A DNA stretch of 64,000 nt from Escherichia coli (GCF_048403405.1 NZ_CP183131.1), one strand, 5' to 3'. Positions 1,960 to 59,773 are shown, numbered from the stretch's first letter. A program made the numbers and translations. Notes: generated by a model not told the origin, from the letters alone.

Positions 1960-1977
1960 ACTTTCACATGTGAAAGT
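1960..1977. promoter_or_regulatory. 18-bp perfect palindrome ACTTTCACATGTGAAAGT (parS-like)
   Basis: Read directly; one of five copies of core CTTTCACATGTGAAAG. Confidence 0.6.
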
Positions 1978-2001
1978 CGATGCCACTGGGAAAGCAGGGG
2001 G

Positions 2002-2355
2002 TTAACCCCCCGCTTTAACCCGCGCTAAGCGGTTTAGGATAGACTTCACGCCTTCCCTTACTCCAGATGGATCGTAACCTGCTTCATCGCAGCAGACCAC
2101 AAATGAGAATGGATGTACCTCATCGGACATCACCCAAGCCATCGTTTCCTGCTTGATTTCACTTCCAGCTCGACCATCAGCAAGGACTCTAAGGCTATGC
2201 CATAAAAGCCCATCACGTAACTGCCTTACCTCATCATCAGTCCATTCAGGCTTTGGCTCAAATGGAATGACTTCTGCGGTCTTCGGCTCTTCATCCAGGA
2301 AGAAAAGCGGCAGCTCAAGCTGGTTTTCCTTCTGGATCATCTTCACTGCATTCAT
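2002..2355 (-). CDS. hypothetical protein (117 aa)
   Basis: ORF track 2002..2421; start moved to MNAVKM with RBS AAAAGGAGTCACC. Confidence 0.5.
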   Translation of the reverse strand: MNAVKMIQKENQLELPLFFLDEEPKTAEVIPFEPKPEWTDDEVRQLRDGLLWHSLRVLADGRAGSEIKQETMAWVMSDEVHPFSFVVCCDEAGYDPSGVREGVKSILNRLARVKAGG

Positions 2356-2423
2356 GGTGACTCCTTTTACGGGCACCATGCCCCCACAGGGGCATGAAGC
2401 CCCCAGTGGGGTTACAGTCATAG

Positions 2424-2615
2424 TTACTTCACGCCTGCCAGTTGAGAATTGATGTTCTCTTCCAGCCAGCCTTGAAGCGATTCAAGGTCACGTTTGTCTT
2501 CCGTATTGCTGGCTTTACGTGCATCTTCCGACACAGCGCTCAACATGGCGTTAGCCTCAGCAAGTGATTCAACATTGTTCCCAGGGAACACAATCGTTTG
2601 ACTGTGATCTTTCAT
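2424..2615 (-). CDS. hypothetical small protein (63 aa)
   Basis: ORF track 2424..2651; RBS AAGGAGAAGACC before internal ATG. Confidence 0.4.
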   Translation of the reverse strand: MKDHSQTIVFPGNNVESLAEANAMLSAVSEDARKASNTEDKRDLESLQGWLEENINSQLAGVK

Positions 2616-2672
2616 GGTCTTCTCCTTTGAGAATGGAGGACCGTCTCCCATCAGGAAGAGCGGCCCCGTGGG

Positions 2673-2948
2673 TTAAAAGTAAAAATCCTCCAGCTCTTCA
2701 TGGTCAGGCTTTCGCTCAACTGGTCGAAGCAACTCAGCTTCATCAGCGAACTCAAGCTCAGGATGAAAAGCAGGATGAAATCCTCGATGCCAGACTGGAC
2801 GGTCATTATCGAGGTCTAAGTAGCAGTGCCTCCCACTGGCTGGGTGATAGCAGTAAAGCCACTGTCTACCACTAACGGTAAACGGCTTCTCTGCACCTCC
2901 ACATGCCGGTACAAGGTTATCTGCTGCTATATGCGCTACAGCATCCAT
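2673..2948 (-). CDS. hypothetical protein with acidic-aromatic C-terminus (..ELEDFYF)
   Basis: ORF track 2673..2996; start moved to ATG after GAGGA; C-terminal tail read from track. Confidence 0.45.
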   Translation of the reverse strand: MDAVAHIAADNLVPACGGAEKPFTVSGRQWLYCYHPASGRHCYLDLDNDRPVWHRGFHPAFHPELEFADEAELLRPVERKPDHEELEDFYF

Positions 2949-2952
2949 AGGA

Positions 2953-3405
2953 TCAGTCCTCATCTTCGTCATCACGAACACAAAGATCACGAGCAACTAT
3001 TTCCGCAGCTATCAACGCATAATCGTTGCCCTGCCAGAACCACCGCTCCGCCAGCTCATAGGCTTCGCTGGAAGGTTCGCCATAACCATGAGCCACCACG
3101 TAATCGTGGAACACTTCATGATCAAATGCCTTGCCATCAGCTTCCATGAACCAACCGACAGGGCACTCCAGAATGCGATGCCTTACGACATCTCGCTCTG
3201 AATACCCCTCTCTGACGGCTTGCTCCAACATTTCCCGCGACATACCAGGAGGAGTGATGATCTCTATGCTGATCCCGTCACTTCCTGCAAGATTGTCCTC
3301 GTATGGAAGACCGGCAAGTGTAAGGTGATTGCGCTTGCACCAGCCGATGGTCCGAAGTATCCGACTTTTGTCAGACTCCCTGGCCGTGTATCGGTTAAGC
3401 TGCAT
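2953..3405 (-). CDS. hypothetical acidic protein (150 aa, C-terminus DDEDED)
   Basis: ORF track 2953..3462; RBS GGAGGTG before MQLNRY. Confidence 0.5.
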   Translation of the reverse strand: MQLNRYTARESDKSRILRTIGWCKRNHLTLAGLPYEDNLAGSDGISIEIITPPGMSREMLEQAVREGYSERDVVRHRILECPVGWFMEADGKAFDHEVFHDYVVAHGYGEPSSEAYELAERWFWQGNDYALIAAEIVARDLCVRDDEDED

Positions 3406-3784
3406 AGCCACCTCCAGCACACTCCCCATCTTCGATTTCACTTCCGAGCTCGACCATTCCAATCAGGTCAAGCTGGGTCATGTCCGAATCCAGAGAGCAG
3501 TCAATTGCTGACTGAATGATGCCTTTGTGGGCCAAGCCTAAAACGGACTTAATAGTCGAAAGCAGAGACTCGGCTTCGCTCTCGATTTGCTCCAGAATGT
3601 CTTTCCATTCCCAGTGCTCAAACGGTTGCCAAACGACCAGATCCTCAGGCTCGTCTCCCCGTTCGACACACTCAGACAAATACTCATAAGCCTTGCACCA
3701 ATTCTCTTGTTGGCCCAGTTCACTGAGCACTAGAGCGGTAGCATGACCGTATGCGATTTGTTCAACTTTGGTATTGATAGACAT
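3395..3784 (-). CDS. hypothetical highly acidic protein (129 aa)
   Basis: ORF track; strong RBS GAGGAGAAACACT before ATG. Confidence 0.55.
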   Translation of the reverse strand: MSINTKVEQIAYGHATALVLSELGQQENWCKAYEYLSECVERGDEPEDLVVWQPFEHWEWKDILEQIESEAESLLSTIKSVLGLAHKGIIQSAIDCSLDSDMTQLDLIGMVELGSEIEDGECAGGGYAA

Positions 3785-3845
3785 AGTGTTTCTCCTCGTA
3801 ATGGATAGAGGAGCCCCACCCGCAGGAAAGGCTCCTCCGGATGGG

Positions 3846-4076
3846 TTAAATTTCCAAGGTCACATCGGTTTTTGCTTTAGCGCAGCAAACCAACACTTCC
3901 CCTTCTTTGACAAATGCGATGGGCGTCTCGTCATAGGCCACTTGACCTTCGAGTAGACGAACCCGGCACATGCCACAAAAGCCACTGCGACAATGCGTTT
4001 CAACAGTGAGGCCTTTGCTTTCGATTTGCGCCAACAGCACATTGTTGCTGGCTTGAAGTTGTACGTTCATGGTCAC
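3846..4076 (-). CDS. 2Fe-2S ferredoxin-like small protein
   Basis: CRSGFCGMC (C-x4-C-x2-C) plus downstream CC; RBS AAAGGAGCG. Confidence 0.6.
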   Translation of the reverse strand: MTMNVQLQASNNVLLAQIESKGLTVETHCRSGFCGMCRVRLLEGQVAYDETPIAFVKEGEVLVCCAKAKTDVTLEI

Positions 4077-4135
4077 GCTCCTTTGTTGTTGATGAGCGCG
4101 ACCAATCCCCTCCGGGATGTCACGCCCCGGTTGGG

Positions 4136-5020
4136 CTACTCAGCAAGTGCATAGACACCTACCTCGATGCGAATAAAGAACCTGGCATCTTGAAGAACTT
4201 GCCTGACCTTTGCTTGCCAGTGGTTGTTCTCTCGATGCTTTGCGTAGGGTTCAATCTCTTTGTAAATCTGCTCCAGCTTCAACGTTTTCCCCTGTAGGGT
4301 TCGGCGTATTGCAGCTTTCCACGTAGTCGAAACCATATTGGTTGCTCGACGGTGTACGGCAGCAAGAAGACAGAGCGATGAGGCAACGTCGTTACGACGA
4401 AACACCAACAGCTTTTCATGGGCGATACGCACCAGCTTCCCGGAATACTGAGTTCGGTCACTCACACAGTTGTGCTGTGTTTTGATGATCTCATCCACCA
4501 GCTTCCCAGGTGCGATACGTTCCACAAGGCTGGACAGGTTGAAATAATCCCCATCGCGCCTCAGGTTTCCCATGAGGATTCCGTAATGCCCTCCTCGCTC
4601 ACAGGCGTCATGAATATTCATAACGGCCAGCTCAAGGGCTTCAACGAACTCAGGCAAATTCATGCGGCTCATATCCCATTTGTTGGGCTCGCCCCACTGC
4701 TTACCTGAATACTGGATCATGTCCCAGTAAGGAGGGTGCCACCAGATCAGGTGTGCAGGCTCTCCGAGGAACGAAAGGAAGTCATCCCGCAACAGGTTGA
4801 ACCCCTGATGCAAGTCTGTCCCTTTGAAACGGACACCAAGTTCATTGGCAACGTCGATGCTAGAGCCACCCCCAACACTTGGGTCTGCCACCAGCCCGTT
4901 CGGCTTTCTCATGTAAGACTCAATGAAGTCTTTAACGATAAAGCCCGAGCAGTTGCCTCGGTACTTGTTGTTTCCGTAAGGCCCCCTGTTTTCGTAGGAG
5001 CATACTGATGATTTGAACAT
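4136..5020 (-). CDS. DNA amino-methyltransferase (N6A/N4C type, motif I before PPY)
   Basis: ADPSVGGGSS (motif I-like) then WWHPPYWD (motif IV PPY); RBS GGAGGA before MFKSS; ORF track 4136..5059. Confidence 0.6.
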   Translation of the reverse strand: MFKSSVCSYENRGPYGNNKYRGNCSGFIVKDFIESYMRKPNGLVADPSVGGGSSIDVANELGVRFKGTDLHQGFNLLRDDFLSFLGEPAHLIWWHPPYWDMIQYSGKQWGEPNKWDMSRMNLPEFVEALELAVMNIHDACERGGHYGILMGNLRRDGDYFNLSSLVERIAPGKLVDEIIKTQHNCVSDRTQYSGKLVRIAHEKLLVFRRNDVASSLCLLAAVHRRATNMVSTTWKAAIRRTLQGKTLKLEQIYKEIEPYAKHRENNHWQAKVRQVLQDARFFIRIEVGVYALAE

Positions 5021-5093
5021 GGCGTCCTCCATCATAGATGGGGCGCACCATGCTCCCATCAGGGGCCGGTTCGCCCCTGGTTAGGGATTAAGA

Positions 5094-5594
5094 TCAAGCG
5101 TTATCTGCATACCACCAGCTAAGGCGATTGCAATCACGAAAGAAGGTTGCTTCATCAGGAGCCTTCATCATGACCACATCACCTTCGCAGTAGGTGCATA
5201 GCTCAAGCGTTGCTTCATTTTTCCAAAAGGCACTGCACCCCGATTCTTGATACACAACCTCCCATTTGGGATGTCGCAAGTACCGATGGAAGAAATCGAG
5301 AGTGTCACCATAAGGGAAGTTGAAGCGCTCCATCACTGAACCATTTTCTGTCAGTTCAGGTTTAACCTTGCCGGTTTTCAAGCGCTTCTTGATGATGCGC
5401 TGAACCCAACGAAGTCGTGCAAACAGCCGATTGGTGTCTTTCTCGTACCACTGGGGATTACGCTTGCTCCAGTAGAGCTTGGCGAAGATTTCCCCGGACA
5501 AATCCTTCATCTGGTTTTCGTTGAGCTCATCAAGAAAACGTCGAGAAGGTTTGTCGTAGTCAAGAACTGCTTCCAAAGCTGATAGGTTTTTCAT
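5094..5594 (-). CDS. hypothetical protein (166 aa)
   Basis: ORF track; RBS AAGGAGTCCCT. Confidence 0.55.
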   Translation of the reverse strand: MKNLSALEAVLDYDKPSRRFLDELNENQMKDLSGEIFAKLYWSKRNPQWYEKDTNRLFARLRWVQRIIKKRLKTGKVKPELTENGSVMERFNFPYGDTLDFFHRYLRHPKWEVVYQESGCSAFWKNEATLELCTYCEGDVVMMKAPDEATFFRDCNRLSWWYADNA

Positions 5595-5684
5595 AGGGAC
5601 TCCTTATTGCGATTGCGGAGCCCCGTCCCCTCAGGGCTATCGGAGCCCCATAGGGTTAATTAGGGTTAATGGTTGAACGGCGAT

Positions 5685-6224
5685 TTATCGAGGGTTGGTG
5701 AATCGAATGGCTTTACCAACGAAATCGGCCATCAGTCGATTCCCAGTAGAGCTGAAATAGCTCTGCCACTCTTTCCAACCACCAACGGATTCCACCGAGC
5801 TTGGAGACTCGAAGATACCCCAGATACGCATTTCACAACCTCGTTGCAACACTCGGTTTACCTGGTCAACCAAGTATTCCTTGTTCTGCAATGAAGAGAG
5901 GTTGCAAGGCATCTGCATGATCAGCTTTTCAGCTTGCTCGAAGTCGATTTTTTCAATCAACCCCGTGCGGGTATCCACAGAGAATGGAACCACCTGTTGA
6001 CCGTGGTTAGACCACAACCAATGGGTGATATAGATCGGATTAACGCCAACTTCCGCTGGCACCAATACGCTGCCGCAAGACCGCAACAGCCAGACCAGAC
6101 GTAAACCATCGAATCGATCCAGAGACTCCACATCGGTAGTGATGTCATCCTGGTAGATTTCAGGCAGCTTATGTTCGGCGGCGAGAGAGATCATTACGGA
6201 TTTGAGATTGTTCAGATGAGACAT
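5685..6224 (-). CDS. hypothetical protein (179 aa)
   Basis: ORF track; RBS AAGGAGCACAC; first gene downstream of a module copy. Confidence 0.55.
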   Translation of the reverse strand: MSHLNNLKSVMISLAAEHKLPEIYQDDITTDVESLDRFDGLRLVWLLRSCGSVLVPAEVGVNPIYITHWLWSNHGQQVVPFSVDTRTGLIEKIDFEQAEKLIMQMPCNLSSLQNKEYLVDQVNRVLQRGCEMRIWGIFESPSSVESVGGWKEWQSYFSSTGNRLMADFVGKAIRFTNPR

Positions 6225-6290
6225 GTGTGCTCCTTAAAGTAACTTGGGCACACAGAGCCTGTCAGGCGCAGTGCGCCCTTAGGCTGAGGT

Positions 6291-6365
6291 TGAATGCTGT
6301 TTGTTTTTGGCGACCAGCTATCGCACGTTTCGCCCTCAGAGAGGACAAAATTCACTTTCTCAGCA
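6291..6365 (-). promoter_or_regulatory. degenerate copy (distal half) of the conserved upstream module
   Basis: GAATGCTGTTTGTTTTTGGCGACCAGCTATCGCACGTTTCGCC nearly identical to core at 10129..10165. Confidence 0.55.
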
Positions 6366-6488
6366 ACCCTCAATGAAGGCCTCTGAGAAAGTGGGAGGGT
6401 ATTCCCTCCTCACTTTGATTGTTCCACGAGAGCTGTGTGAACAGGAACGCTCAAACTGCCCTTTTCGGGTGCAAAGCTCAAAGACGCA

Positions 6489-6824
6489 TCAACTGCCCCG
6501 TCTTTTCAGTTCTTCGACCAGATGTTCAGGCACCTTACTCGCAGTACAGGCCAGCAATACATCGAGGCCTACCGGCTTGTGAAAGCGCTTATTTGACCAG
6601 GAATCGCCAACTGATGACTTTGCCCAGTCGATTGCTTGCCCAAGACTGTGGAACTGCCGCCTGCCTGTGTATCCCATACGACTATCCAAAGTAACACCCT
6701 GGAACAGTCTCCAGTACATCGGAGGAATGCGCTTAGCAAGCAGTAAAAAAGGCGTCTCCGGCACTGTAGCCCTTCTACCTTTGTTCCGATGATACAAATC
6801 CAAAGATGAATGGAATTGGTTCAT
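6489..6824 (-). CDS. hypothetical protein (111 aa)
   Basis: ORF track; RBS GGAGAG. Confidence 0.45.
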   Translation of the reverse strand: MNQFHSSLDLYHRNKGRRATVPETPFLLLAKRIPPMYWRLFQGVTLDSRMGYTGRRQFHSLGQAIDWAKSSVGDSWSNKRFHKPVGLDVLLACTASKVPEHLVEELKRRGS

Positions 6825-6833
6825 AGACTCTCC

Positions 6834-6867
6834 AAATAAAAACGGCCACCCCCGAAGGGATAGCCGT
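6834..6867 (-). terminator. intrinsic terminator after vWA gene
   Basis: Minus-sense ACGGCUAUCCC-UUCG-GGGGUGGCCGU followed by UUUUUAUUU. Confidence 0.6.
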
Positions 6868-6885
6868 TTGTCGTTTCACTTCCTG

Positions 6886-8682
6886 TTAAGCTGCAAAAGC
6901 AGTCAATGACCGCTCCATCAACTTAAACAGTGTGCGTTGCAGAGCTGCCGCATCATCAATGACAATGTTCTTTTGGAACAGTCCTGACACTGCGGTAGTC
7001 TCTACCCCTATGCCGATCACCTCAACATCGCTTCGTTCACAGAGGTCAATCACTGAGCGACATGCCGGGGCGCTTTGAGGCTGCCCGTCAGTCACTACGA
7101 TCAACATTTTTCGCTCTTCACGGGTCTTGGTGAGTTCAAAAGCTGCATACCACATAGCTTCCGCCATAGGCGTACCGCCAGTTGCTTTGAACCCAAACCG
7201 ACCGGCCCGATTCTGAACCGTATCTCCATGCTTCACGACACTGAACACTGGCTGGTTCCGGTTGCCACCAAAAAAGGTGACTGCCGGGTTTACGCCGGGT
7301 ATTGCTTCCAGAGCCATCGAAATAGCCAAGGACGCTTCCCGCGCAATGTCTTGACGCTCCTTTCCATTGGCGGCCTTGTAGGCCATCGAGGAGCTCATAT
7401 CAACCAGGATGTGAACCGCCGTATTAGGGCGTTTCTTGGCTTCCGGCTTGAGGAATACGCGGGTATCACCCGTCACTACACGATGTAGTTTCCGAGCATC
7501 CACACGCTTCCCTGATCGTTGGTTACGGTGAGCAACTCGCTGGCTGGCCTGGACCAATCCGTAGAGCTGCGTTCTTATCTTTGAAGTGGTGCTCTTCACA
7601 TCCCCTACCAGGCTTTTGCCAACAGCAGGGTTGTCCTGGGTGTTCACAGCAGAGCGAACAGTCATATAGCTACTGTCCCCCTTATCTTGAGCCACCCGGT
7701 TGAGCTCGGCTTTAAGTGCATCATGCGCGTCACCACGCAAATCACCGGCACCGGCATTCAGAACCTGCTGGAGCATTTTGGCCGCGTCTTGTTTCGCCGC
7801 GTCAGAATTGCCACCAGCCTGGCTTTGTCCTGCCTTGCTGCCACCATCAGTATCCGACTTGCCTTGGTCGCCCTGTCCTTTCGGATCAGATTTCCCGTTA
7901 GCATCGTCTTGCTTCTGGTCTTTACCTTGCTGATCACCACCATTGGCATCAGGCCCTTGGTTTTGATCGTTACCACTTCCGCCCTGACTGTTCTGAGGTT
8001 GGTTGCCACCAGCATTCTGCTGGTTGTTACCATCCTGACCATTCAGGGGCTTTTGCTCTTCTTTCTCCTTTTCCTCCTCGATCATCTTGATGATTTGGTC
8101 GGCCAAGGATGTCACCTCTGCGGTTGACTTAGTGTTCACAGCCTTACGCAGTAAAGCGTTCAGCCGAACAACAACACCCTGAGGGAACACGCGCTCGAAT
8201 ACGGGGGTAGCCGAATCGAGATAGGGTTGAAGGACGGATTGCCCTACAGCCTTGGTTTGCAACCAGTACAAACAAAACCCTGTCAGAATGGAGGCAGGGG
8301 CCTCTTTGTCTGTGACGTGCTCGTAATGACCAGCTTGAGCCATATAGCGAGCAACCTCATTCAGGGTCTGCGACGTACCGGGGAAGAGTTCCATCATGGC
8401 CCGTTCTATGCGGCAGTCCTCCAAAACGTTGGACAACTCAGCATGAAGACCTCTGCGGCGCTCAACACCAAAGTCCGTAAACCGGACATGGGCTGCTTCA
8501 TGGGCCAAATACCCCCAGACAGCATCCATGTGAGGATAGTCGTCGGGGATATTCGGAACCACGATGGTCTTACCATCGGTGTATGCGTCATCGTTACCGA
8601 TGGCGACTTTGACACCGAGTTTTTCACCATAGGCTGCGGCCACGATTGGTAGAGCGCTGTAAATGGTGCGTTTTTTGGACAT
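6886..8682 (-). CDS. von Willebrand factor A domain protein (CobT-like) with long Q/G/D-rich disordered linker
   Basis: C-terminal MIDAS-like DMSSSM in a vWA-like segment; low-complexity middle; RBS CAGGAGAAAAGAT. Confidence 0.75.
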   Translation of the reverse strand: MSKKRTIYSALPIVAAAYGEKLGVKVAIGNDDAYTDGKTIVVPNIPDDYPHMDAVWGYLAHEAAHVRFTDFGVERRRGLHAELSNVLEDCRIERAMMELFPGTSQTLNEVARYMAQAGHYEHVTDKEAPASILTGFCLYWLQTKAVGQSVLQPYLDSATPVFERVFPQGVVVRLNALLRKAVNTKSTAEVTSLADQIIKMIEEEKEKEEQKPLNGQDGNNQQNAGGNQPQNSQGGSGNDQNQGPDANGGDQQGKDQKQDDANGKSDPKGQGDQGKSDTDGGSKAGQSQAGGNSDAAKQDAAKMLQQVLNAGAGDLRGDAHDALKAELNRVAQDKGDSSYMTVRSAVNTQDNPAVGKSLVGDVKSTTSKIRTQLYGLVQASQRVAHRNQRSGKRVDARKLHRVVTGDTRVFLKPEAKKRPNTAVHILVDMSSSMAYKAANGKERQDIAREASLAISMALEAIPGVNPAVTFFGGNRNQPVFSVVKHGDTVQNRAGRFGFKATGGTPMAEAMWYAAFELTKTREERKMLIVVTDGQPQSAPACRSVIDLCERSDVEVIGIGVETTAVSGLFQKNIVIDDAAALQRTLFKLMERSLTAFAA

Positions 8683-8766
8683 ATCTTTTCTCCTGGTAGG
8701 GAAGGAGATAGTCCACCCCTGGAGGGAATGGCTATCCCCTCCGGGTCGGTTTAGTTGAAGTGACTA

Positions 8767-10044
8767 TTAGAAGAAATAGTCGCCATCGTCGTCAGTTTTA
8801 GGCAGCTCCTGGTTGAGAGGCTCCTCTGTCGGCTCCTCTTGGACAGGCTCTTGCTCTACCGGAGTTTCCTCAGGCAAAACCGGCTCATCCTCAACATCAA
8901 CGCGCTCTTCTCGAACCACATCACCGGCATTGGATTCATCTTCCGATTCACCCTCGCCTCGTTCTGCAAAACTCTTGAAGAAGTTGTCGATGTCTTCATC
9001 CAGGTCAACAGCGTTACCACCGCTGTTAGTCTGTTCTGATTGAACAGATTCAGTACCACCTACCTGTTGCTGCTTGGTTTCGCCACCCTCTGTTGCAGGG
9101 ATAAGCTCACCGGCTTTATCGCTTTTCTGTTCGGCCTTTTCATCTTTAGAACGGTCCCCCATCTGGGCTCCCGAACCGCCAATGTCATTAGCCATGCCCT
9201 CTACAGTAATCGAGCCATTGGCATACTGCTCGATGCGGTCCCTCTCGCTCATGATCAGCACTGCGGCCACGACCTGATAAAAGAAAGGCGCAACGATGTT
9301 TCGGCCATCGGCATGTTGCTCGTATCCCCGGAGGGTTTGGTCGAGCAGCTTGACCAGAGGGTTAAAAGCGCTGTTCAGGAAGCTAAGCCCATCCACCTTG
9401 TCGCGGATGTTACGGAGTGTCTGCCGAGTAGTGACCGCACATTGGTCTCGACCGGCCAAACGTTCCATATAGAACTTATTCGCTTCCTGAACCACTTCGG
9501 AGATGAGATCGTCACCCAAGCGCTCAACCTTGCGGTTAAGGCGTTTGGCGTTGGCCTCATCTTCGTTCACAGGCTGGATCATGAACACCTGGTACTCAAA
9601 GCCAATCCGCTCCTCGACCGTTTCCTTTGGAAGGGCTCCGGCACGGATAGCTCGTTCATACTCAGGGTTCTCCTGACACCATTCATCCACGGCTTTGTTG
9701 TAACCTTTGATGAAATCCTGTTTCAGTTGGTTAAACTGAAAGTTTATGTCATTCAGCTTGTTACAGATTTCATCGGTCTTGCTGACGGGTACGGCAAATC
9801 CGTTCATGAACGGCATACCGAATTTCAGCAGGAGGCGACGAGTTTCTGTTTTCAGGCGATGAAAGCCTTTCAGCTTAGCCGGATCACAGATCTTCTTACT
9901 TCCCAGTTGAGCTACTTTCTCAGGTGGAATTTCACCACCCTCGCCCAGCTTGAGATCAGATGCAGACAAACGGGTTTGTCCACTCCAGATGTCAAAGTCT
10001 ACGTGGATAACACAGAGGCTTTGTAGATGGTTCACTTTAGTCAT
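8767..10044 (-). CDS. hypothetical protein with E/P-rich acidic tail ending DDDGDYFF
   Basis: ORF track 8767..10056; start moved to ATG after GGAGTGCATC. Confidence 0.55.
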   Translation of the reverse strand: MTKVNHLQSLCVIHVDFDIWSGQTRLSASDLKLGEGGEIPPEKVAQLGSKKICDPAKLKGFHRLKTETRRLLLKFGMPFMNGFAVPVSKTDEICNKLNDINFQFNQLKQDFIKGYNKAVDEWCQENPEYERAIRAGALPKETVEERIGFEYQVFMIQPVNEDEANAKRLNRKVERLGDDLISEVVQEANKFYMERLAGRDQCAVTTRQTLRNIRDKVDGLSFLNSAFNPLVKLLDQTLRGYEQHADGRNIVAPFFYQVVAAVLIMSERDRIEQYANGSITVEGMANDIGGSGAQMGDRSKDEKAEQKSDKAGELIPATEGGETKQQQVGGTESVQSEQTNSGGNAVDLDEDIDNFFKSFAERGEGESEDESNAGDVVREERVDVEDEPVLPEETPVEQEPVQEEPTEEPLNQELPKTDDDGDYFF

Positions 10045-10065
10045 GATGCACTCCAAAAAGTTGGG

Positions 10066-10186
10066 GGCGCACCACGTCCCGAACCGGGCGGATGCGCCCG
10101 GTTGGGCTAGTAAATTAACGTTAATTTGCTGTTTGTTTTTGGCGACCAGCTATCGCACTTTTCGCTCTCCGAAGAGAACAAAATCT
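10066..10186 (-). repeat. conserved 121-bp upstream module, copy 1 (identical to 14901..15021)
   Basis: 121 bp identical by direct reading; contains hairpin CCGGGCG-N4-CGCCCGG and palindrome AAATTAACGTTAATTT. Confidence 0.85.
10112..10127. promoter_or_regulatory. 16-bp perfect palindrome AAATTAACGTTAATTT (operator-like) inside module copy 1
   Basis: Read directly. Confidence 0.5.
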
Positions 10187-10243
10187 TGCTTTCCGTTGGA
10201 GACTCCCAGAATCCCCAAGGGAAAGCGGGGGAAAATCCCCCAC

Positions 10244-16887: not shown

Positions 16888-16965
16888 CTTTTATGGTTGC
16901 ATTTTTTGATGCTGTGATATTATCGAAGTAAATCAGATTCAACTCAGGTAAGAACGGAGAACAAC

Positions 16966-17826
16966 ATGAAAAAGGCTTTAATCACCACCGTGGCTCTGGC
17001 TGTAGCAGCTCTATCTGGCTGTGCATCCACCAGCAGTTACGAACCCACAGCGTACAAAACCAATCACAGTCGCGCTTACAACATCGCGGAGGCCGGTGGC
17101 CTGGTAACAGGCATCCAAGACGCTTCTGTTCCGCGTGACAAGCTGGAGCGTCTGACCGACACCAAAACGTTTGGGGCAGCCTACGTGCTGTCTGGCTACA
17201 TGTCCCCTCAGCTCGGAATGACCGACTGGCAAGGTGGCTTGGTCAACCTTGCGAACTGGGCTATCGGCCCCAAACAGCATGGCGCTCGCAATAGCTTGAT
17301 CGCTTGGATGCCTGCTAACGAAGCAGTTTCACCGGCAGACGCTCAGGCCAAATTTCTTTCACATGTGAAAGTTTCCATTGAGTCAGCGCTGACTGATTTG
17401 GGTGCCAATTTCACGCTTCTGTATGACAAAGATGGTCGCCTAACCTATCAGTTCTACAAGAATGAATGGGGTTGCCCGACGTGGGTGAACGGACAAAGTA
17501 AGGTAGCTGACATGTGTTCCGTTAAGGTGAAAATCGTGGAGCCTCGCCTAGGGTCAGCTCCTAATTTTGTCTCTGGCGTTCAAGGTACAGCGTATGCCTT
17601 CACATCAGGCCATGAGACCGCATACAACTTTGTGAATGTCGGTAATGGGGCAGCAAGCCATGCTCCTCAGCAAGCGATCTACGCAGCTATTAGCAAACAG
17701 CTACCAGCTTGGGCCTACCTCTACCTTGCTCCAAAATCGGTTGAGCTGGATAATGGCGAAAAAGTTGCTTTCCCTTACCTTCTTGATCAGGGAAAAGCAG
17801 AGTTATTTGTTTACCCAGAAGCGTAA
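16966..17826 (+). CDS. lipoprotein (286 aa)
   Basis: Signal peptide with lipobox LSGC; RBS ACGGAGAA. Confidence 0.6.
   Translation: MKKALITTVALAVAALSGCASTSSYEPTAYKTNHSRAYNIAEAGGLVTGIQDASVPRDKLERLTDTKTFGAAYVLSGYMSPQLGMTDWQGGLVNLANWAIGPKQHGARNSLIAWMPANEAVSPADAQAKFLSHVKVSIESALTDLGANFTLLYDKDGRLTYQFYKNEWGCPTWVNGQSKVADMCSVKVKIVEPRLGSAPNFVSGVQGTAYAFTSGHETAYNFVNVGNGAASHAPQQAIYAAISKQLPAWAYLYLAPKSVELDNGEKVAFPYLLDQGKAELFVYPEA
17356..17371. promoter_or_regulatory. palindrome CTTTCACATGTGAAAG (parS-like), intragenic copy
   Basis: Read directly; inside the lipoprotein CDS. Confidence 0.5.
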
Positions 17827-38324: not shown

Positions 38325-38399
38325 AGACCCTCCAAATAACTTGTCGTCATCACGGAGTAATCGTCTCTTAATTGATCAATCTAGGAACAGTGCTGTTAC

Positions 38400-38415
38400 G
38401 GCCCATTTTGGGCAC
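38400..38415. promoter_or_regulatory. FlhDC-family activator box GGCCCATTTTGGGCAC
   Basis: In the 38325..38504 intergenic region. Confidence 0.5.
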
Positions 38416-38460
38416 TTTATGGAGGTTTATTCGAGGAGATGATAAGAGCGGGAGGCGAAA

Positions 38461-38480
38461 AACTTTCACATGTGAAAGTT
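38461..38480. promoter_or_regulatory. 20-bp perfect palindrome AACTTTCACATGTGAAAGTT (parS-like)
   Basis: Read directly. Confidence 0.6.
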
Positions 38481-51258: not shown

Positions 51259-51261
51259 CGG

Positions 51262-53547: not shown

Positions 53548-53550
53548 TGG

Positions 53551-54051
53551 TCAACCTCTTTTCTTCTTGTTTTGCTCGCGCTTCACCATTGCTCCAGCAG
53601 CTTTCAGAAGTCTCTGGTTCTCCGCCAGCTCCTCTTGGAGTTCCTGAGTATCCTCTTCTGTCTGAGGCTTTTTCAGCTCGGCCTCGCAATATTGGACCTC
53701 TTCCTGCAAGCTGACTTTCGCAAACTTGAGAGCGGCCAGTCGCGTCGTATAAACGCCAAAAGGCAATTCGCCACCTTCCCGGAACTGCTTCAAACACCAG
53801 CTCGGTATAGATGGCAACCAACCAAAGTCCCCATTCTTCCGTGACCTTTTCCCCCACGTAATCCCATCTAACTTTTGGGCAAGATTGACATAGCGTTGAT
53901 CGCTGGTTGAGTTGCGTCGTTTCTGAATAGAGCGAACTATCCACTCTGTAACCTCGACCTTTGCTTTATCATCATCAGAGATGTAATAAAGGGCTGCGTA
54001 CAACACAGCGCCTTTACGAATGACTGATGGTGGGTATGCCTGGGCTTTCAT
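53551..54051 (-). CDS. hypothetical protein (166 aa)
   Basis: ORF track; RBS TAGGGGGATAG. Confidence 0.45.
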   Translation of the reverse strand: MKAQAYPPSVIRKGAVLYAALYYISDDDKAKVEVTEWIVRSIQKRRNSTSDQRYVNLAQKLDGITWGKRSRKNGDFGWLPSIPSWCLKQFREGGELPFGVYTTRLAALKFAKVSLQEEVQYCEAELKKPQTEEDTQELQEELAENQRLLKAAGAMVKREQNKKKRG

Positions 54052-54059
54052 CTATCCCC

Positions 54060-54392
54060 CTATCGCTTTTTCTGTCCGACAAGACGGAGATGATCGGCGG
54101 CCAAGTCATACTGCTCGTTTTTGTCGCGGCGGCGGAATCTGTCAAAAAACTTCCCTCGTGGCAGGGTTTCTTCCATAGCGATCAGGCGGTTCAGCCACAC
54201 TTCTTGAGGTAGCATCCCTGCTGGAGTCGGCCCGAGCTTACGTCCTTCCTTGACGTGCTCCATTGTTTGCGTGGCAGTAAAAATCGCACCACCAAACTTT
54301 CTCCACTTGAATTGCAGGGGCATATCTGGAGACTCATCCAGCATCAATTTCTTATTGGTTTGTTCTGTCACGACAATTACTCCACCATCCAT
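54060..54392 (-). CDS. hypothetical basic protein (110 aa)
   Basis: ORF track. Confidence 0.4.
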   Translation of the reverse strand: MDGGVIVVTEQTNKKLMLDESPDMPLQFKWRKFGGAIFTATQTMEHVKEGRKLGPTPAGMLPQEVWLNRLIAMEETLPRGKFFDRFRRRDKNEQYDLAADHLRLVGQKKR

Positions 54393-54883
54393 TCTTCACT
54401 AAGCAGGAACGCCCAGCGCTCTTCTGCTTTTTCTGGGTTGTCTTTGGCCTGTTTGATCATGATCTCGGCGGCGTTAAAGCCTACCTCTCCACTGAACCGG
54501 CCCCATGAATGGCTATGCCACTCGCGCATCACACTTCGGCCAAGCGATGCAAGTTCTGGACTTACACCCTCATGGAGGGCATAGAGCTCCCAAGCATCCC
54601 ACCCGTATCGTAATAGGTTGTGCCCTGGGGCGTTAAAGGCCTGAGCAGCCTTGAACCGCTCTCCAGGCTCCTTCCCTCTAACATCCACACCCTGGAGCAC
54701 CAACCCCATTACCACTTCAATGACCGGCTCGCGTTGCTTCTTTGCCAGCTCGATGGCAGCCACCAGCATTGCTTTGGCGTCAGCAAATTTCCCATGCCCT
54801 TGGCACATACCGCAGGTTTCTTTGGAAGGGGAAAAGTCATAAACACCGGAACCAGCACAGAGGCGGCATGTCATGTCAATCAT
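54377..54883 (-). CDS. protein with DnaJ-type zinc finger (two CxxCxGxG repeats)
   Basis: CRLCAGSG and CGMCQGHG; RBS AGGAGAGAAG; ORF track 54377..54901. Confidence 0.5.
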   Translation of the reverse strand: MIDMTCRLCAGSGVYDFSPSKETCGMCQGHGKFADAKAMLVAAIELAKKQREPVIEVVMGLVLQGVDVRGKEPGERFKAAQAFNAPGHNLLRYGWDAWELYALHEGVSPELASLGRSVMREWHSHSWGRFSGEVGFNAAEIMIKQAKDNPEKAEERWAFLLSEEWMVE

Positions 54884-55550
54884 GGGCTCTTCTCTCCTCA
54901 TACTCTTCGATGCGCTCTTTCAGACGCTGAACCACTGGTGCGAGCTCAGGGATAGCTTCCGCTTCCTCAAGCGTGTATCGCTTGTCTTCCTGGTAATCGA
55001 CTATTTGAGGAGGCCTTGGCTGTTTAGGGAACTCAGCAAAGTCATTCAGCGACATCGAGGTAGGAAGTCCTCCTTCAATCTCACCTTTTTCGTTGAGTGA
55101 CTGGGTGACGATAAGCTGTGTTCCGCCCACCTCGGTATCAAAGCGGTCATCAAAGCGCTCACCGATAGTCCAGCCGCCACGGCCAAGAACACAGGTCGTA
55201 CTCATACGTAGGCGATTGAATGCTTTAGCGTCATCCCAGTTCAAAGGATTTTCATCCATGAGGAAAAAAGGCGCTTCGTCCCGAACGAACACCTTGGACT
55301 TGGCGTTATCGAAGATCGGCCCAAACACCCCCTGCTGGAGGTATGGTTCGACCTTCTCTGCAAGATCCTGGTGCCCTTGAGAACGCAGCGCCTCATAGAG
55401 CTGGGTGATTGTTTGTTTGCCGGTGCCCGGAAGGCAGGACAATACTGTCTGCTTTTCCTCGTCACTCAGGCTTACCATTCTGGACAAAAAGCTGACTACC
55501 AGCTCGTTGTGCCCATCGACCGTTTCAATGTTGAGCTTGTTCTCGTCCAT
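54876..55550 (-). CDS. hypothetical protein (224 aa)
   Basis: ORF track 54876..55583; RBS GAGGAA. Confidence 0.45.
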   Translation of the reverse strand: MDENKLNIETVDGHNELVVSFLSRMVSLSDEEKQTVLSCLPGTGKQTITQLYEALRSQGHQDLAEKVEPYLQQGVFGPIFDNAKSKVFVRDEAPFFLMDENPLNWDDAKAFNRLRMSTTCVLGRGGWTIGERFDDRFDTEVGGTQLIVTQSLNEKGEIEGGLPTSMSLNDFAEFPKQPRPPQIVDYQEDKRYTLEEAEAIPELAPVVQRLKERIEEYEERRAHD

Positions 55551-55806
55551 CTTCTTCCTCAGTAATCGGTTCGATAAATTCAATGGAGTCCATGCTTACA
55601 TGACTGATAATGGCTTTCAGGCCGCAGCAGTCGCATGGTTCAAAGGTCAGTTCTGATCCCTTGGGAGACTGATGCGTGACCGTTGCCACAGCCCCTAGAG
55701 GGATCACCCCCCAGCCGTTTTTTAGTACCCGAGTAGTTCTGACCAGCCGACCTTTGTACTCTCGTTTCAGTTTCGGATGCGGCACTACCGCATATCGCTT
55801 ACTCAT
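55525..55806 (-). CDS. hypothetical small protein (93 aa)
   Basis: ORF track 55525..55893; RBS AAGGGG before MSKRYAV. Confidence 0.4.
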   Translation of the reverse strand: MSKRYAVVPHPKLKREYKGRLVRTTRVLKNGWGVIPLGAVATVTHQSPKGSELTFEPCDCCGLKAIISHVSMDSIEFIEPITEEEDGREQAQH

Positions 55807-56185
55807 TTCGGTCCCCTTGTACCAAAGGCTCGACAACCAGCTCTTGAGCTTCGTCCCAGTCGGACACCTTTGCATCACCAAACGCAAAGGCAATTCGCAT
55901 AGCCACTGTCGGCCTGCCTATTTTCATCAAGTAAGCCGCAGCACCGGCACACATCGACTCTTGTCCCGAAGGTGCATAGTTACCCTCTTCATCCCATTCA
56001 CCACCTGACTTTGAATGCACGGTCTTGTGGCAATGAAACGTCGTCATGTCGTTTTCAACGATGTCGTTGATGATGCCTTCTAATCGCCCAGGGACCAGCT
56101 CGATAGCGCCCTCCTTCCGGAATGGACAGTTGGCGCAAGGTTTCTTCAAACGGAGATGATTTGCTTGCTTTGGCATACATATCAC
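55799..56185 (-). CDS. hypothetical Cys/His-containing protein (possible zinc ribbon)
   Basis: CANCPF and FHCHKT; non-ATG (GTG) start in track, ATG 9 nt downstream. Confidence 0.4.
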   Translation of the reverse strand: MICMPKQANHLRLKKPCANCPFRKEGAIELVPGRLEGIINDIVENDMTTFHCHKTVHSKSGGEWDEEGNYAPSGQESMCAGAAAYLMKIGRPTVAMRIAFAFGDAKVSDWDEAQELVVEPLVQGDRNE

Positions 56186-56194
56186 TTTTACAGT

Positions 56195-56207
56195 ATCATT
56201 TTATGAT
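56195..56207. promoter_or_regulatory. palindrome ATCATTTTATGAT (operator-like), shared with parA promoter
   Basis: Same sequence reverse-complemented at 59783..59795. Confidence 0.45.
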
Positions 56208-56274
56208 TCTATGATATAGCCATATTCCGTGTAGTCAATATCTCACTAACAATTACTTTCTATCGGACGCTTAC

Positions 56275-56291
56275 GCGCCCATTTTGGGCAG
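56275..56291. promoter_or_regulatory. FlhDC-family activator box GCGCCCATTTTGGGCAG
   Basis: In divergent intergenic hub 56186..56494. Confidence 0.5.
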
Positions 56292-56341
56292 ATAGACAAG
56301 TTATTTGGGCGTTTGGAGTGTGCGAGGTGGACAGCGGGGAG

Positions 56342-56359
56342 ACTTTCACATGTGAAAGT
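56342..56359. promoter_or_regulatory. 18-bp palindrome ACTTTCACATGTGAAAGT (parS-like)
   Basis: Read directly. Confidence 0.6.
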
Positions 56360-56494
56360 TTTGTTTCTTGGTATCGTTTTATTGTCCCTTGATATTATTT
56401 TATGATGCTGTAATAATCATAAATAAGGGCCGCATCGCTCTTCGACCTTCGTTGCAGCCCTTACAACACAATCAAGCAATTAAGGAGCTTTGTT

Positions 56495-56638
56495 ATGCTG
56501 CAAGGCAATACTAACACGAATAAGCGCATCCCGCTCGCGGCGTTCATGAAATGGCCGCTGGCGAAACGTCAGGACTTCATCGACCGGGAAATGTCCGGTT
56601 GCCCCGACTTTATCAAGACGTCTTTGCTTCGGCATTAA
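56495..56638 (+). CDS. small leader ORF (47 aa)
   Basis: Manual; RBS AAGGAGCTTTGTT; followed by hairpin 56661..56691. Confidence 0.3.
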   Translation: MLQGNTNTNKRIPLAAFMKWPLAKRQDFIDREMSGCPDFIKTSLLRH

Positions 56639-56660
56639 GGCGATCAGGCAGGAAAGCAAA

Positions 56661-56691
56661 GAACCTCGCTTCGGCGGGGTTCTTCGTTTCT
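56661..56691 (+). terminator. terminator/attenuator hairpin between leader ORF and methyltransferase-like gene
   Basis: GAACCTCGC-TTCG-GCGGGGTTC then TTCGTTTCT. Confidence 0.5.
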
Positions 56692-56729
56692 ACCTCTTGA
56701 ATGTTTCGTCAGAACAAACTGGAGCGCTT

Positions 56730-57365
56730 ATGTCACCAGAAACACAGCAACTTACATCCAAGGCTTTATCTCTCATCGAGCAGTCCCGATACAGAATGGG
56801 CACATCTCGGTTTGTTGAGGCCTTTATTGACCAGTGGGCATACTTGCAGACTGGCCTATACCCAGCCAAGGAGGAGATCCCGGAAGAACTTCAGCCGGTC
56901 GCCTTCGAGCTCTCTCACGTCCTGTCTGCCGCCATTAAGCGCGACCCCACCAGCGATGTTTTGGGTTACGTCCTAAGCATGTCTGGCTTCCACAAGAAGG
57001 GCACCAATTACTTCCCCACTCCTCCAGAGATTGGCCGCTTGATGTCACTCATTGTTGGCTCACAGTCTTCGGCAGACTTTTATGAGCCCTGCTGTGGTTC
57101 TGGCATCAACGCCATTCACTGGATGGAAAACCTGATCGAGAACCACGGTCCCGAAGCATTGAGAGAAGCCTCAATCTACCTGGAAGACATCGATCCGTTG
57201 ATGGTGAAGTGCTGCATGATCCAGCTATTCCATTATTTCGAGTCCCGCAATACCACTCCCAAAACGCTGAGTATCGTCGGCATAGACACCCTTAGCAGAC
57301 GAACCAAGAACATCGCCTACTACGCCGAAAAACCTCCAGCAACCGCCGCTACCGTGGCAGCATAA
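56730..57365 (+). CDS. truncated N6-adenine methyltransferase-like protein (SAM-binding half only)
   Basis: YFPTPPEIGRLM (HsdM motif X-like) and FYEPCCGSG (motif I); no NPPF/NPPY before stop; RBS CTGGAGCG; ORF track 56697..57365. Confidence 0.55.
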   Translation: MSPETQQLTSKALSLIEQSRYRMGTSRFVEAFIDQWAYLQTGLYPAKEEIPEELQPVAFELSHVLSAAIKRDPTSDVLGYVLSMSGFHKKGTNYFPTPPEIGRLMSLIVGSQSSADFYEPCCGSGINAIHWMENLIENHGPEALREASIYLEDIDPLMVKCCMIQLFHYFESRNTTPKTLSIVGIDTLSRRTKNIAYYAEKPPATAATVAA

Positions 57366-57390
57366 AAAAACCCGCCGATTGGCGGGTTTT
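57364..57390. terminator. bidirectional intrinsic terminator
   Basis: A7-CCCGCC-GATT-GGCGGG-TTTT. Confidence 0.7.
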
Positions 57391-57417
57391 GCATTCAATG
57401 CGCTGCTCTATGGCACC

Positions 57418-57690
57418 TTACAGTTTTCCGTACCGGTTCAAGAACGAAGACCTGTCTAAGATCCCCCAGTCTGTCAGCATGTAGTAGCCGGTGGCACCTC
57501 GTTCGCCGGTAGACTCCCTGACGAACAAGATATTCATTCCGAACTCATCACGCAGGGCAGACAACTGTCTCTTGATCGTTGATTCAGGAATATTTGTTGC
57601 CTTGTGAAGGTCTTGGAGACTTGGCTTCTCCGTTTTAGACAGGGCATTCACCAAAGCAAATTTTCTTTTCATGTCCTGTGAGATCTTCAT
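57418..57690 (-). CDS. small DNA-binding protein, third gene of partition operon (IncC 053-like position)
   Basis: ORF track 57418..57696; HTH-like LQDLHKATNIPESTIKRQLSALR. Confidence 0.45.
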   Translation of the reverse strand: MKISQDMKRKFALVNALSKTEKPSLQDLHKATNIPESTIKRQLSALRDEFGMNILFVRESTGERGATGYYMLTDWGILDRSSFLNRYGKL

Positions 57691-57738
57691 ATTCACCTGT
57701 TCTTGACAGGCCCAACCTCTCTGGCTGGGCCTCCTTTA

Positions 57739-58920
57739 TTAGCCTTCGACACTCAGGAGTTCAATGTCTGACACAGGCACATGAACATGCTTTTCCTTGC
57801 CTTCGCCATCGAGCGTTTTAACCCAGACAGTAGACGGAACCAGAGCAACACGGTCGGTCATGATGACTCCACGTTTGGTCTCGCCATCCAGGTTAACGTT
57901 GACAGCAAAAATCAAACTGTCAGCCCGGACGTTCTTCCATTCCTTGTCCTTCGGCAGAGGAGGAAGAGCATCACCGCCTTCTTCATCTTTGTCCTTGCCG
58001 CTGTTATCTGGCTGCTTGACAGGATCTTTGTGCTCACCCTCTTCATCACGCAAAGGGTCTTCGTCATCATCGTCCTGACCATTGGAATTTTTACCCCCTT
58101 CCAGTTCCTCCTGGGCAAGGTTCAGGTCGTCATTCCCGGTTTGTTCCGACGTACCATCCCCACCCGAGTTGAGGGATTGCTCGTCGGTGTTGCCAGCGCC
58201 AAGCTCATCATTCTGGTGGGAGCCAGTCAGTGGGCCTTTTTCCATTTCGTCTTTGATACGTTTGGCATCATTCAGCAGCTCACGGCTTTGTTTACGAGTA
58301 ATCCCGTCAGACATAGCCACCGCGCAGACGGCGCGACATCTTTCTTCATTCAGATCGAACAAGAGACGAAGGTTATTCAAGGTCTCTGTATCAGAACATA
58401 CTTCATTATCGTATAACTCACGCACACAGTCAGGTAGCTTGAGCAACGACAGATGCGTAGATACGAAAGTGATATTCTTACCGAGCCGATCAGCAATATC
58501 CTTTTGCTTCCAACCTTCTTCAATAAACAGGTTTAACGCCTCGGCAATCTCTACCGGAGTCAAGTCATCCCGCTGGATGTTTTCGATCAGCTCACCAGCA
58601 GTCTCGTCCAAGTTGTTCTGGACCTTATCATTCACCACCAAGTCAATGGTCTCGATACCAGCGTGTTTACACGCTCTCCAACGCCGCTCCCCTTTTTGGA
58701 TGACGAACTTGCCTTCTTCGTTCTTCGGGAACACGATGATCGGAGACTGCTGCCCTTCGGTCAGCAAGGTTGCCGCCAGCTCTTCAATGTTACGGAAGCG
58801 CTTACGAACCTGGACCTTGGATACAACGTCGTCAACAGGTACGGTAAGAACCTCTTTGCCTTTCTTGCCTTTGGCGGCTTTAGCAAGTTCGGACAGGCCT
58901 TTTAAATTGTTCAATGCCAT
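57739..58920 (-). CDS. parB: partition protein ParB (KorB-like, 393 aa)
   Basis: ParB N-terminal box KGERRWRAC; acidic disordered middle; directly follows parA. Confidence 0.75.
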   Translation of the reverse strand: MALNNLKGLSELAKAAKGKKGKEVLTVPVDDVVSKVQVRKRFRNIEELAATLLTEGQQSPIIVFPKNEEGKFVIQKGERRWRACKHAGIETIDLVVNDKVQNNLDETAGELIENIQRDDLTPVEIAEALNLFIEEGWKQKDIADRLGKNITFVSTHLSLLKLPDCVRELYDNEVCSDTETLNNLRLLFDLNEERCRAVCAVAMSDGITRKQSRELLNDAKRIKDEMEKGPLTGSHQNDELGAGNTDEQSLNSGGDGTSEQTGNDDLNLAQEELEGGKNSNGQDDDDEDPLRDEEGEHKDPVKQPDNSGKDKDEEGGDALPPLPKDKEWKNVRADSLIFAVNVNLDGETKRGVIMTDRVALVPSTVWVKTLDGEGKEKHVHVPVSDIELLSVEG

Positions 58921-58923
58921 CGC

Positions 58924-59709
58924 TTAGCCCACCTTCTCTAATAGTTCTTCCAACACCGCCTCAACTTCTTTGGCCGCGACATGTCCATAGCGAAGCTCCC
59001 AGACAGGGATGCCATCAGTCGTCGCCGTATCGAGCGGAGGCCGGTGCATAATTTTGTTCTCAAACAACAGATCCGGAACTGTGTTCTCCAGCGACTTGAG
59101 GGCTTTGTCGTGATTGACAGAGCGGTCCATGTCGTTGATCACGATGCCCAGGATCTCCAAATCTTGGTTGTACGCCTCGCGCACACCAATAATCGTGTTC
59201 AGGAGACCTTCTACGCCGTCCACAGCGAAGCCAGAGAGCTTTACTGGACATGCCACATGGGTAGACATCACCAACGCTGCCACCAGCTTTCTGCCGAGGC
59301 TAGGCGGACAATCAATCAGCACGTAGTCGTAGTTCTCAAACAGCTCAGCCAAATGGCGAGCCGGATTCATGGCCTGGTCAAGAGGCACAGCCTCCATCTC
59401 AAACAGATCCGGGTCGTTTTTCGGCGTATGAATGAGGTCTGCACCGCAAGGGCAGTGCATGACCTCAATGCCGTCCAGCTCGTAAGCGAACAGCTCTGCG
59501 GTTTTGGTTCCTGTGAGGATGGGCTCGTAGTCACCATCCTCAAGCTCTCGTCTGGGGGCCAGTCGAGAGGACGTGTTCCCCTGACCATCCATATCCAAGA
59601 CCAGCACTTTCTTTTTCTTCTGTAACGCCAGATAAAAGGCCTGCTGGATACAGAGGGTACTCTTACCCACTCCGCCTTTCTGGTTGGCGAAGCTGATTAC
59701 TTTTGCCAT
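58924..59709 (-). CDS. parA: partition ATPase ParA
   Basis: Deviant Walker A KGGVGKST; RBS GAGGTG; ORF track 58924..59715. Confidence 0.85.
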   Translation of the reverse strand: MAKVISFANQKGGVGKSTLCIQQAFYLALQKKKKVLVLDMDGQGNTSSRLAPRRELEDGDYEPILTGTKTAELFAYELDGIEVMHCPCGADLIHTPKNDPDLFEMEAVPLDQAMNPARHLAELFENYDYVLIDCPPSLGRKLVAALVMSTHVACPVKLSGFAVDGVEGLLNTIIGVREAYNQDLEILGIVINDMDRSVNHDKALKSLENTVPDLLFENKIMHRPPLDTATTDGIPVWELRYGHVAAKEVEAVLEELLEKVG

Positions 59710-59757
59710 ACCCACCTCTATTTTGGTTTCTCGCAGGTGATCAAGACCACCCCCAAA

Positions 59758-59773
59758 CTTTCACATGTGAAAG
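59758..59773. promoter_or_regulatory. palindrome CTTTCACATGTGAAAG (parS-like) upstream of parA
   Basis: Read directly. Confidence 0.6.

Follow-up and report, generated by a model that had tools for sequence, protein, structure and literature searches.

The 64,000-nucleotide stretch of Escherichia coli DNA analyzed here (NZ_CP183131.1; hereafter the window) carries five dispersed copies of a palindrome whose closest described counterparts are the partition (parS) and operator sites of ParB-type proteins. The operator OB, of which the IncP-1 plasmid RK2/RP4 has twelve for its KorB protein, is the 13-bp sequence TTTAGCSGCTAAA, and the chromosomal Spo0J/ParB parS consensus is a 16-bp palindrome, TGTTTCACGTGAAACA, with a CG center; sopC of plasmid F is an array of tandem 43-bp repeats. 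The parS of IncC plasmids, present in 14 copies in plasmid R55, was reported by Murányi, Szabó, Acsai, and Kiss (Nucleic Acids Research 2024; PMC10954446) in the course of a study of helper-plasmid expulsion by Salmonella genomic island 1 (SGI1). According to these authors, it consists of an invariant core, TTTCACATGTGAAA, with AAAC/GTTT flanks that complete a 22-bp inverted repeat, in which the G next to the core is invariant and the following T nearly so. In electrophoretic mobility shift assays (EMSA), purified ParB shifted the copy at the parA promoter as well as a consensus copy near eexC, while binding was absent with the 14-bp core alone and was abolished by a 4-bp central insertion; the gel shifts were unusually high, suggestive of spreading. 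A mini-replicon with a single site was stabilized only if ParA and ParB were both supplied, the product of the third par-operon gene, 053, being dispensable. A KorB domain in ParB and the presence of a parS copy near four AcaCD-dependent promoters were also described, and studies of further ParB functions were said to be in progress (PMC10954446).

The window is backbone DNA of a conjugative plasmid of the IncC (IncA/C2) group, 100% identical to IncC plasmids; over window positions ~1-61000 it is collinear with p1540-2 from E. coli. Its parA-parB region is 100% identical to that of >1000 plasmids typed as IncC, which carry a MOBH relaxase and mating-pair genes of the F type, and its contents include the parA-parB-053 operon (- strand), traI/traD, the traLEKBVA and traC-traN blocks, bet/exo, and the start of a sul2 resistance island. 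The five palindromes are, with high confidence, five of the 12-14 parS sites of an IncC plasmid, and as such were already known and published in 2024. They agree with IncA/IncC parS in core, flanks, backbone positions, and copy number (12-14), and nothing in their sequence differs. An earlier annotation made from the sequence alone (the first-pass annotation) had proposed that these parS-like sites, dispersed over the backbone, are bound by the ParB of the element, and had named EMSA with ParB and a partition assay with the cloned site as checks; in the published experiments, the palindrome was bound and the one-site mini-replicon was stabilized with ParA and ParB (PMC10954446).

Compared with the chromosomal parS, the IncC site has in common the half-site TTTCAC/GTGAAA, the perfect palindrome, and the occurrence of several copies per replicon, but its half-sites stand two bases further apart (CACATGTG versus CACGTG), its flanks are AAAC/GTTT instead of TG/CA, and its copies are spread over the whole replicon, whereas those of chromosomes cluster near the origin. 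The half-site resemblance remarked upon in the first-pass annotation thus holds at the level of sequence, apart from the two additional bases in the center. The IncC site is only analogous to OB, since it is an even palindrome of 14 bp with required flanks and not a 13-bp sequence. The 22-bp inverted repeat is likewise found in the parS mimics DR1 and DR2 of SGI1, to which IncC ParB binds and which function in partition; unlike the plasmid copies, however, they reside on a parasitic island without parAB genes of its own, serve to hijack and destabilize the plasmid, and do not occur in the window.

Five exact parS copies in the window

Exact-match searching for the 16-mer CTTTCACATGTGAAAG returned five sites in the window (1961-1976, 17356-17371, 38463-38478, 56343-56358, and 59758-59773), the same five as in the first-pass annotation, versus 0.00 expected from dinucleotide-preserving shuffles. 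No degenerate copies with up to three mismatches were found in the window: where the site occurs, it is intact. The perfect palindrome measures 18, 16, 20, 18, and 16 bp at the sites beginning at 1961, 17356, 38463, 56343, and 59758, respectively, and the earlier count of three copies reaching 18-20 bp (1961, 38463, and 56343) is reproduced. The invariant 14-bp core is exact in all five, each time bordered by a C...G pair and accompanied by at least one full AAAC/GTTT arm (on one strand); beyond 22 bp, nothing is common to the plasmid copies. In order and type, the window sites match the published list (parAB053, R55_55, R55_74, the in-gene R55_91, and R55_109). A literature search for the exact 16-mer gave no match; the paper prints the 14-mer instead.

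The copy at the parA promoter (59754..59775; the sites, being palindromes, are given without strand) reads AATC-TTTCACATGTGAAA-GTTT on the - strand and is identical in the IncA plasmid pRA1. As annotated in the first pass, it lies directly upstream of parA: it adjoins the -10 hexamer, and the annotated start codon, an ATG at 59709, follows after 49 bp. The copy at 56339..56360 (R55_55; pRA1 33477) occupies the divergent intergenic region between vcrx036 (-) and an operon with small open reading frames (ORFs) and an N6-methylase gene (+), and the copy at 38459..38480 (pRA1 51315) lies upstream of the AcaCD-dependent promoter of vcrx068, ahead of the traL transfer operon. The copy at 17352..17373 (R55_91) is inside an ORF at 16966-17826 (+), where it spans codons 131-135 (LSHVK); its orthologue, at pRA1 72334, falls within the orthologous ORF. 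This ORF begins with MKKALITTVALAVAALSGC, which includes a lipobox, and its predicted designation as a lipoprotein is therefore reasonable. The last copy, at 1957..1978 (R55_109; pRA1 87793), lies between two small genes, both on the - strand, that are 191 bp apart; no sigma-70-like promoter was detected there in a promoter scan, and AcaCD boxes come no closer than 4.5 kb. The earlier assignment of four sites to intergenic regions and one to the lipoprotein gene is confirmed, while the description of the four as promoter-containing holds for 59758, 56343, and 38463 but not for 1961.

The ParB protein and probable autoregulation of the par operon

The parB gene (57739..58920, - strand) encodes a KorB-type centromere-binding protein of 393 amino acids with the Pfam domains ParB_N, HTH_ParB, and KorB (PF08535, E 4e-38). 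Its closest solved relative is KorB of RK2 (8qa8, E 9e-21; a second KorB structure, 1r71, E 3e-13). The CTP-binding motifs GERRWRA and ENIQRDDL of ParB align to GARRYRG and ENLQRNEL of KorB, as well as to the corresponding motifs of Noc and Spo0J, and are invariant in eight family members with 42-100% identity. The hallmarks of a ParABS system are accordingly present, namely an adjacent Walker-type ParA and a ParB that combines N-terminal motifs of the cytidine triphosphatase fold (GxxRxxA and ENxQR) with a helix-turn-helix domain. The length of ParB, considered unusual in the first-pass annotation, is ordinary, since homologues mostly have ~310-410 amino acids; the additional residues form an acidic linker, as they do in KorB.

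Two further genes complete the operon. The gene parA (58924..59709, - strand) encodes a Walker-type partition ATPase that is annotated as a ParA family member and matches the NCBIfam model ParA_partition at E 8e-26, a score below the curated cut-off. Gene 053 (57418..57690, - strand), the third in the operon, encodes a small winged-helix protein (Pfam HTH_43, E 8e-10) with no NCBIfam match; a gene of this type also follows parB in the relatives designated L009, L011, L012, L014, and L015. The first-pass annotation had named this small helix-turn-helix protein beside ParB as a candidate, but it makes no contribution to parS-dependent stabilization (PMC10954446).

The parA core promoter (PparA; 59774..59802, - strand) consists of a -35 hexamer TTGCAG (59802-59797), a 17-bp spacer, and a -10 hexamer TACAAT (59779-59774), which parS follows without a gap; a predicted promoter with a -10 box overlapping parS has also been published (PMC10954446). 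Since parS comes directly after the -10 hexamer, bound ParB would cover the parA transcription start. In the alignment, seven lineages share the core promoter, and the register of parS after the -10 hexamer is kept in IncC, IncA, and the relatives L008, L009, L010, and L015. Whole plasmids repress PparA 8-11-fold, and the SGI1 protein Sci counteracts this repression (PMC10954446).

Two other features adjoin the par operon and its promoter. Just upstream of the -35 hexamer, a block TGTTTTAACAGAACCATAATTAG (window ~59803-59830, - strand) is kept in seven lineages, including one without a parS operator, and may represent an UP element or a different binding site. On the other side of the operon, an orphan N6 DNA methylase gene (window 56730-57365, + strand) appears to be expressed from the promoters on either side of the 56343 parS. 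Methylation at the center of parS (CATG/ACATGT) could in principle affect ParB binding.

Conservation of parS across plasmids and ParB relatives

Copies of the core were compared among p1540-2, pVCR94deltaX, and the RefSeq record of pRA1, which contain 13, 12, and 14 copies, respectively. Each of the five sites of the window has a counterpart at the orthologous position in pRA1, some with diverged flanks but none with a diverged core; a lack of positional conservation in related elements was the outcome that the first-pass annotation had named as speaking against its proposal. A copy with one mismatch, TTTCACATGCGAAA, is found at p1540-2 136882, 34 bp into a tyrosine recombinase gene; an intact copy is present at pRA1 105089, and the p1540-2 copy is apparently a decayed parS.

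For a comparison over greater evolutionary distances, the DNA around ParB homologues of falling identity was retrieved. The exact 14-bp core was present in 2-13 copies per 16-21 kb beside ParB proteins of 69, 63, 58, 56, 52, and 49% identity. Near the ParB of L014 (42% identical), the IncC core is absent, while the gene order parA-parB-winged-helix gene is kept; instead, six copies of TTTCGCTGGCGAAA (or its complement) occur within 11.9 kb (2497, 3182, 4871, 7280, 8146, and 9178), one of them 43 bp before parA, with the site form TTTCGC-YR-GCGAAA. At residues invariant in the same-site homologues, the L014 ParB has changes that include S158A, L160N, C165H, D177G, and T180S, and the altered site looks like a specificity switch. 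The site thus changes together with ParB across relatives, which provides independent support for the assignment of ParB to parS, besides the published gel shifts. The orphan parB of L013 (Pseudohongiella chromosome), with neither parA nor sites, was set aside as not comparable.

A different arrangement was found in L009 (E. coli plasmid CP100851.1; ParB 58% identical), where 8.6 tandem units of 48 bp at 5000-5411 each contain the exact core, with differing flanks (GTC...CAC); dispersed copies are present too, giving a total of 13 in 21 kb. This array is similar to F sopC, in contrast to the sites in the window and in IncA/IncC plasmids, which are single and kilobases apart.

In a scan of species-representative genomes, the 16-mer was multi-copy on contigs of Vibrio, Shewanella, Marinomonas, Paraglaciecola, Salinimonas, Photorhabdus, and others, and several of the multi-copy loci that were retrieved also encode a ParB of the IncC-type family; single matches elsewhere occurred at about the chance rate. 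Two alphaproteobacterial metagenome-assembled genomes (MAGs) stand apart. In the Rhodobacteraceae MAG CALKOT01 (L095-L138), the 16-mer occurs at least 46 times on >30 contigs, always within an oriented element, AAAAC-CTTTCACATGTGAAAG-TAGnnnTAAGCyATTGATaTATA. The Rhodospirillaceae MAG TMED167 (L033-L041) has at least 11 copies of the 16-mer without this flank. The retrieved flanks of both MAGs showed no IncC-type ParB.

Position of parS relative to genes and AcaCD-dependent promoters

In pVCR94deltaX, eight of the 12 parS copies are fully intergenic, compared to a non-coding fraction of 10.3% of the DNA (P=4e-6). The AcaCD boxes and transcription starts determined by chromatin immunoprecipitation with exonuclease digestion (ChIP-exo)/MAST and 5' rapid amplification of cDNA ends (Carraro et al. 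2014, Table S3) were mapped by exact sequence match. Overlapping activator boxes for vcrx036 and vcrx035 lie at 56267..56300 (- strand); the vcrx036 box covers 56267-56295, with a start at ~56231, and the core of the 56343 parS is 48 bp upstream of this box, centered at -119.5. The activator box for vcrx068 is at 38391..38419 (- strand), with a start at ~38354, and the 38463 parS is located 44 bp upstream of the box, centered at -116.5. Outside the window, the promoters of vcrx012 and traF have parS at -86.5 and -90.5. Overall, four of the 12 pVCR94deltaX sites are 36-66 bp from an AcaCD box, always on its upstream side, an association with P=2e-4 when tested against all positions (an intergenic-only null is considered below).

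A second dispersed palindrome near parS

The spacer between the -35 and -10 hexamers of PparA holds a second inverted repeat, ATCATTTTATGAT. This 13-mer occurs again at 56195, with a one-mismatch copy at 56394 (0.08 expected), and forms the center of a 27-bp palindrome, TTACAGTATCAT-N3-ATGATACTGTAA, of which TCACAGCATCAA-N3-ATGCAACTGTGA is a variant. Copies in the window are located at 59776-59802, 56188-56214, 56387-56413, and 16891-16917. Allowing up to eight mismatches, IncC has ~10 copies and IncA has 11, most of them at orthologous positions, versus ~0.25 in shuffles, and every IncC copy is intergenic. The 56343 parS has a copy on either side, each filling the spacer of a predicted promoter, and one lies ~50 bp upstream of the lipoprotein gene containing the 17356 parS. 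The 27-bp palindrome recurs 41-60 bp from parS in IncC, IncA, L009, L011, and L015, the overall range of distances in IncC, IncA, and the relatives being 23-60 bp. No description of it was found in the searchable literature, and the LexA box and the IHF consensus were rejected because the order and spacing of the half-sites do not fit these known consensus sequences. The 27-bp palindrome may mark a family of promoters with a common repressor and is a candidate operator for a co-repressor of PparA.

Discussion

The identity of the palindrome is settled and there is nothing new in it; the main interpretation of the first-pass annotation is correct. By the published EMSA, the 22-bp repeat AAAC-TTTCACATGTGAAA-GTTT is recognized by a ParB dimer, and, as published for a single site on a mini-replicon, ParB on parS partitions plasmid copies at cell division together with the ParA ATPase. 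The copy at 59754-59775, which abuts the -10 hexamer and would cover the start of the parA transcript, appears to be the autoregulatory operator of parA-parB-053; repression by the plasmid is published, and occlusion by ParB would be its likely cause. Since ParB keeps the CTP-binding motifs of the ParB/KorB clamps, it probably loads onto parS as a CTP-dependent clamp and slides outwards. The copies at 56339-56360 and 38459-38480, ~117-120 bp upstream of AcaCD-dependent starts, could damp transfer and accessory promoters, as their position suggests, while those at 17352-17373 and 1957-1978, which have no evident promoter, would most likely be additional ParB loading sites only. Binding of all five window copies by ParB is predicted from their sequence, and a wider regulatory role of ParB at parS sites stands at roughly even chances.

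Several observations weigh against this explanation. Among the five window sites, only the parA-promoter copy served as an EMSA probe, such that binding at 1961, 17356, 38463, and 56343 would follow from sequence identity. Likewise, CTP binding and sliding by this ParB are suggested by conserved motifs. In L011 (Marinobacter sp. G11, ~9100-9212), the -35 hexamer, spacer, -10 hexamer, and upstream block are kept, but the parS after the -10 hexamer has been replaced by unrelated sequence, with three exact parS copies present elsewhere on the element; at least one lineage can therefore do without the operator role. ParA, ParB, and 053 alone repress PparA only weakly, implying an additional backbone factor (PMC10954446), and ParB therefore does not fully explain the control even of its own promoter. 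The intergenic enrichment of parS could reflect selection against gene disruption and not regulation. Proximity to AcaCD boxes is not significant versus an intergenic-only null (P=0.056) and was not relied upon as proof of a regulatory role; an effect of parS on AcaCD-dependent promoters is plausible from position. As for the KorB-like network coupling partition to regulation that was suggested in the first-pass annotation, its centromere role and its repression of the parA promoter are published, whereas regulation of accessory and transfer operons is a reading of site positions.

The comparison with KorB is informative in both directions. IncC ParB/parS and KorB of RK2 have in common the KorB domain, dispersed identical palindromes, and CTP motifs, and parS copies are placed like those of KorB, i.e., at promoters, ~90-120 bp upstream (as in class II OB), and far from promoters (as in class III). 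A second repressor is apparently required for full repression of PparA, as with KorA. However, the IncC autoregulatory site overlaps the -10 hexamer and start, whereas its KorB counterpart lies upstream of the -35 hexamer, and repression in IncC is published for PparA only, unlike the KorB regulon of multiple operons. This last point also favors an account in which parS is a centromere and ParB-loading site whose sole regulatory copy is that at the parA promoter and whose intergenic placement arises because a perfect palindrome of 16-22 bp fits genes poorly. Such a purely centromeric function falls somewhat short of an even chance. Each plasmid has three or four in-gene copies that IncC and IncA have both kept, no promoter could be detected at the 1961 site, the AcaCD proximity fades against the intergenic-only null, and L009 concentrates eight copies in a tandem array with a 48-bp period, the classic layout of a pure centromere. 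It accounts less readily for the four AcaCD-associated copies, all upstream of the box and in two tight classes (~-88 and ~-118 from the start), for a KorB-type architecture with KorB as the closest solved relative, a family that combines both roles, or for the recurrence of parS 41-60 bp from the second, promoter-associated palindrome in several lineages.

Assignment of the palindrome primarily to another protein, either 053 or a different backbone regulator, with ParB binding as a secondary property, is highly improbable. Although 053 is a winged-helix protein that is co-transcribed with parB and found after it in five relatives, and although full repression of PparA needs a factor besides ParA, ParB, and 053, purified ParB alone shifts the sites specifically and stabilization through parS proceeds without 053 (PMC10954446), L008 and L010 keep the sites with no HTH_43 gene seen after parB, and the site changes together with ParB in L014. 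The probability that the copies are chance palindromes, repetitive extragenic palindrome (REP)-like or miniature inverted-repeat transposable element (MITE)-like repeats, terminator stems, or restriction-modification targets (with the CATG/ACATGT center) is negligible. The high-copy, longer oriented element in an unrelated Rhodobacteraceae MAG would fit a repeat, and the orphan N6 DNA methylase gene adjoining the par operon would fit a restriction-modification target, but zero copies are expected by chance, a palindrome without a loop makes a poor terminator, nothing longer than 22 bp is common to the plasmid copies, and direct ParB binding and partition have been published (PMC10954446), by which any non-binding explanation is already refuted. 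The terminator, REP-element, and chance explanations were rejected on these grounds.

Under the preferred reading of parS as a ParB-bound centromere and operator, a two-operator circuit can be envisaged, in which ParB at parS would act together with a second repressor at TTACAGTATCAT-N3-ATGATACTGTAA, analogous to KorB and KorA of RK2; this second repressor would be both the additional factor at PparA and the target of SGI1 Sci. The proposal is tentative and, taken as a whole, rather unlikely.

IncC plasmids rank among the principal vehicles of carbapenemase and other multidrug-resistance genes in Enterobacterales and Vibrio. They rely on this partition system for stable inheritance, and its parS sites are the lever by which SGI1 evicts its helper plasmid. 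The positional data, along with the second palindrome, provide concrete candidates for ParB regulation of transfer and accessory operons and for the co-repressor of PparA. The two-operator pair, if true, would tie partition of these plasmids to the expression of their maintenance and transfer genes.

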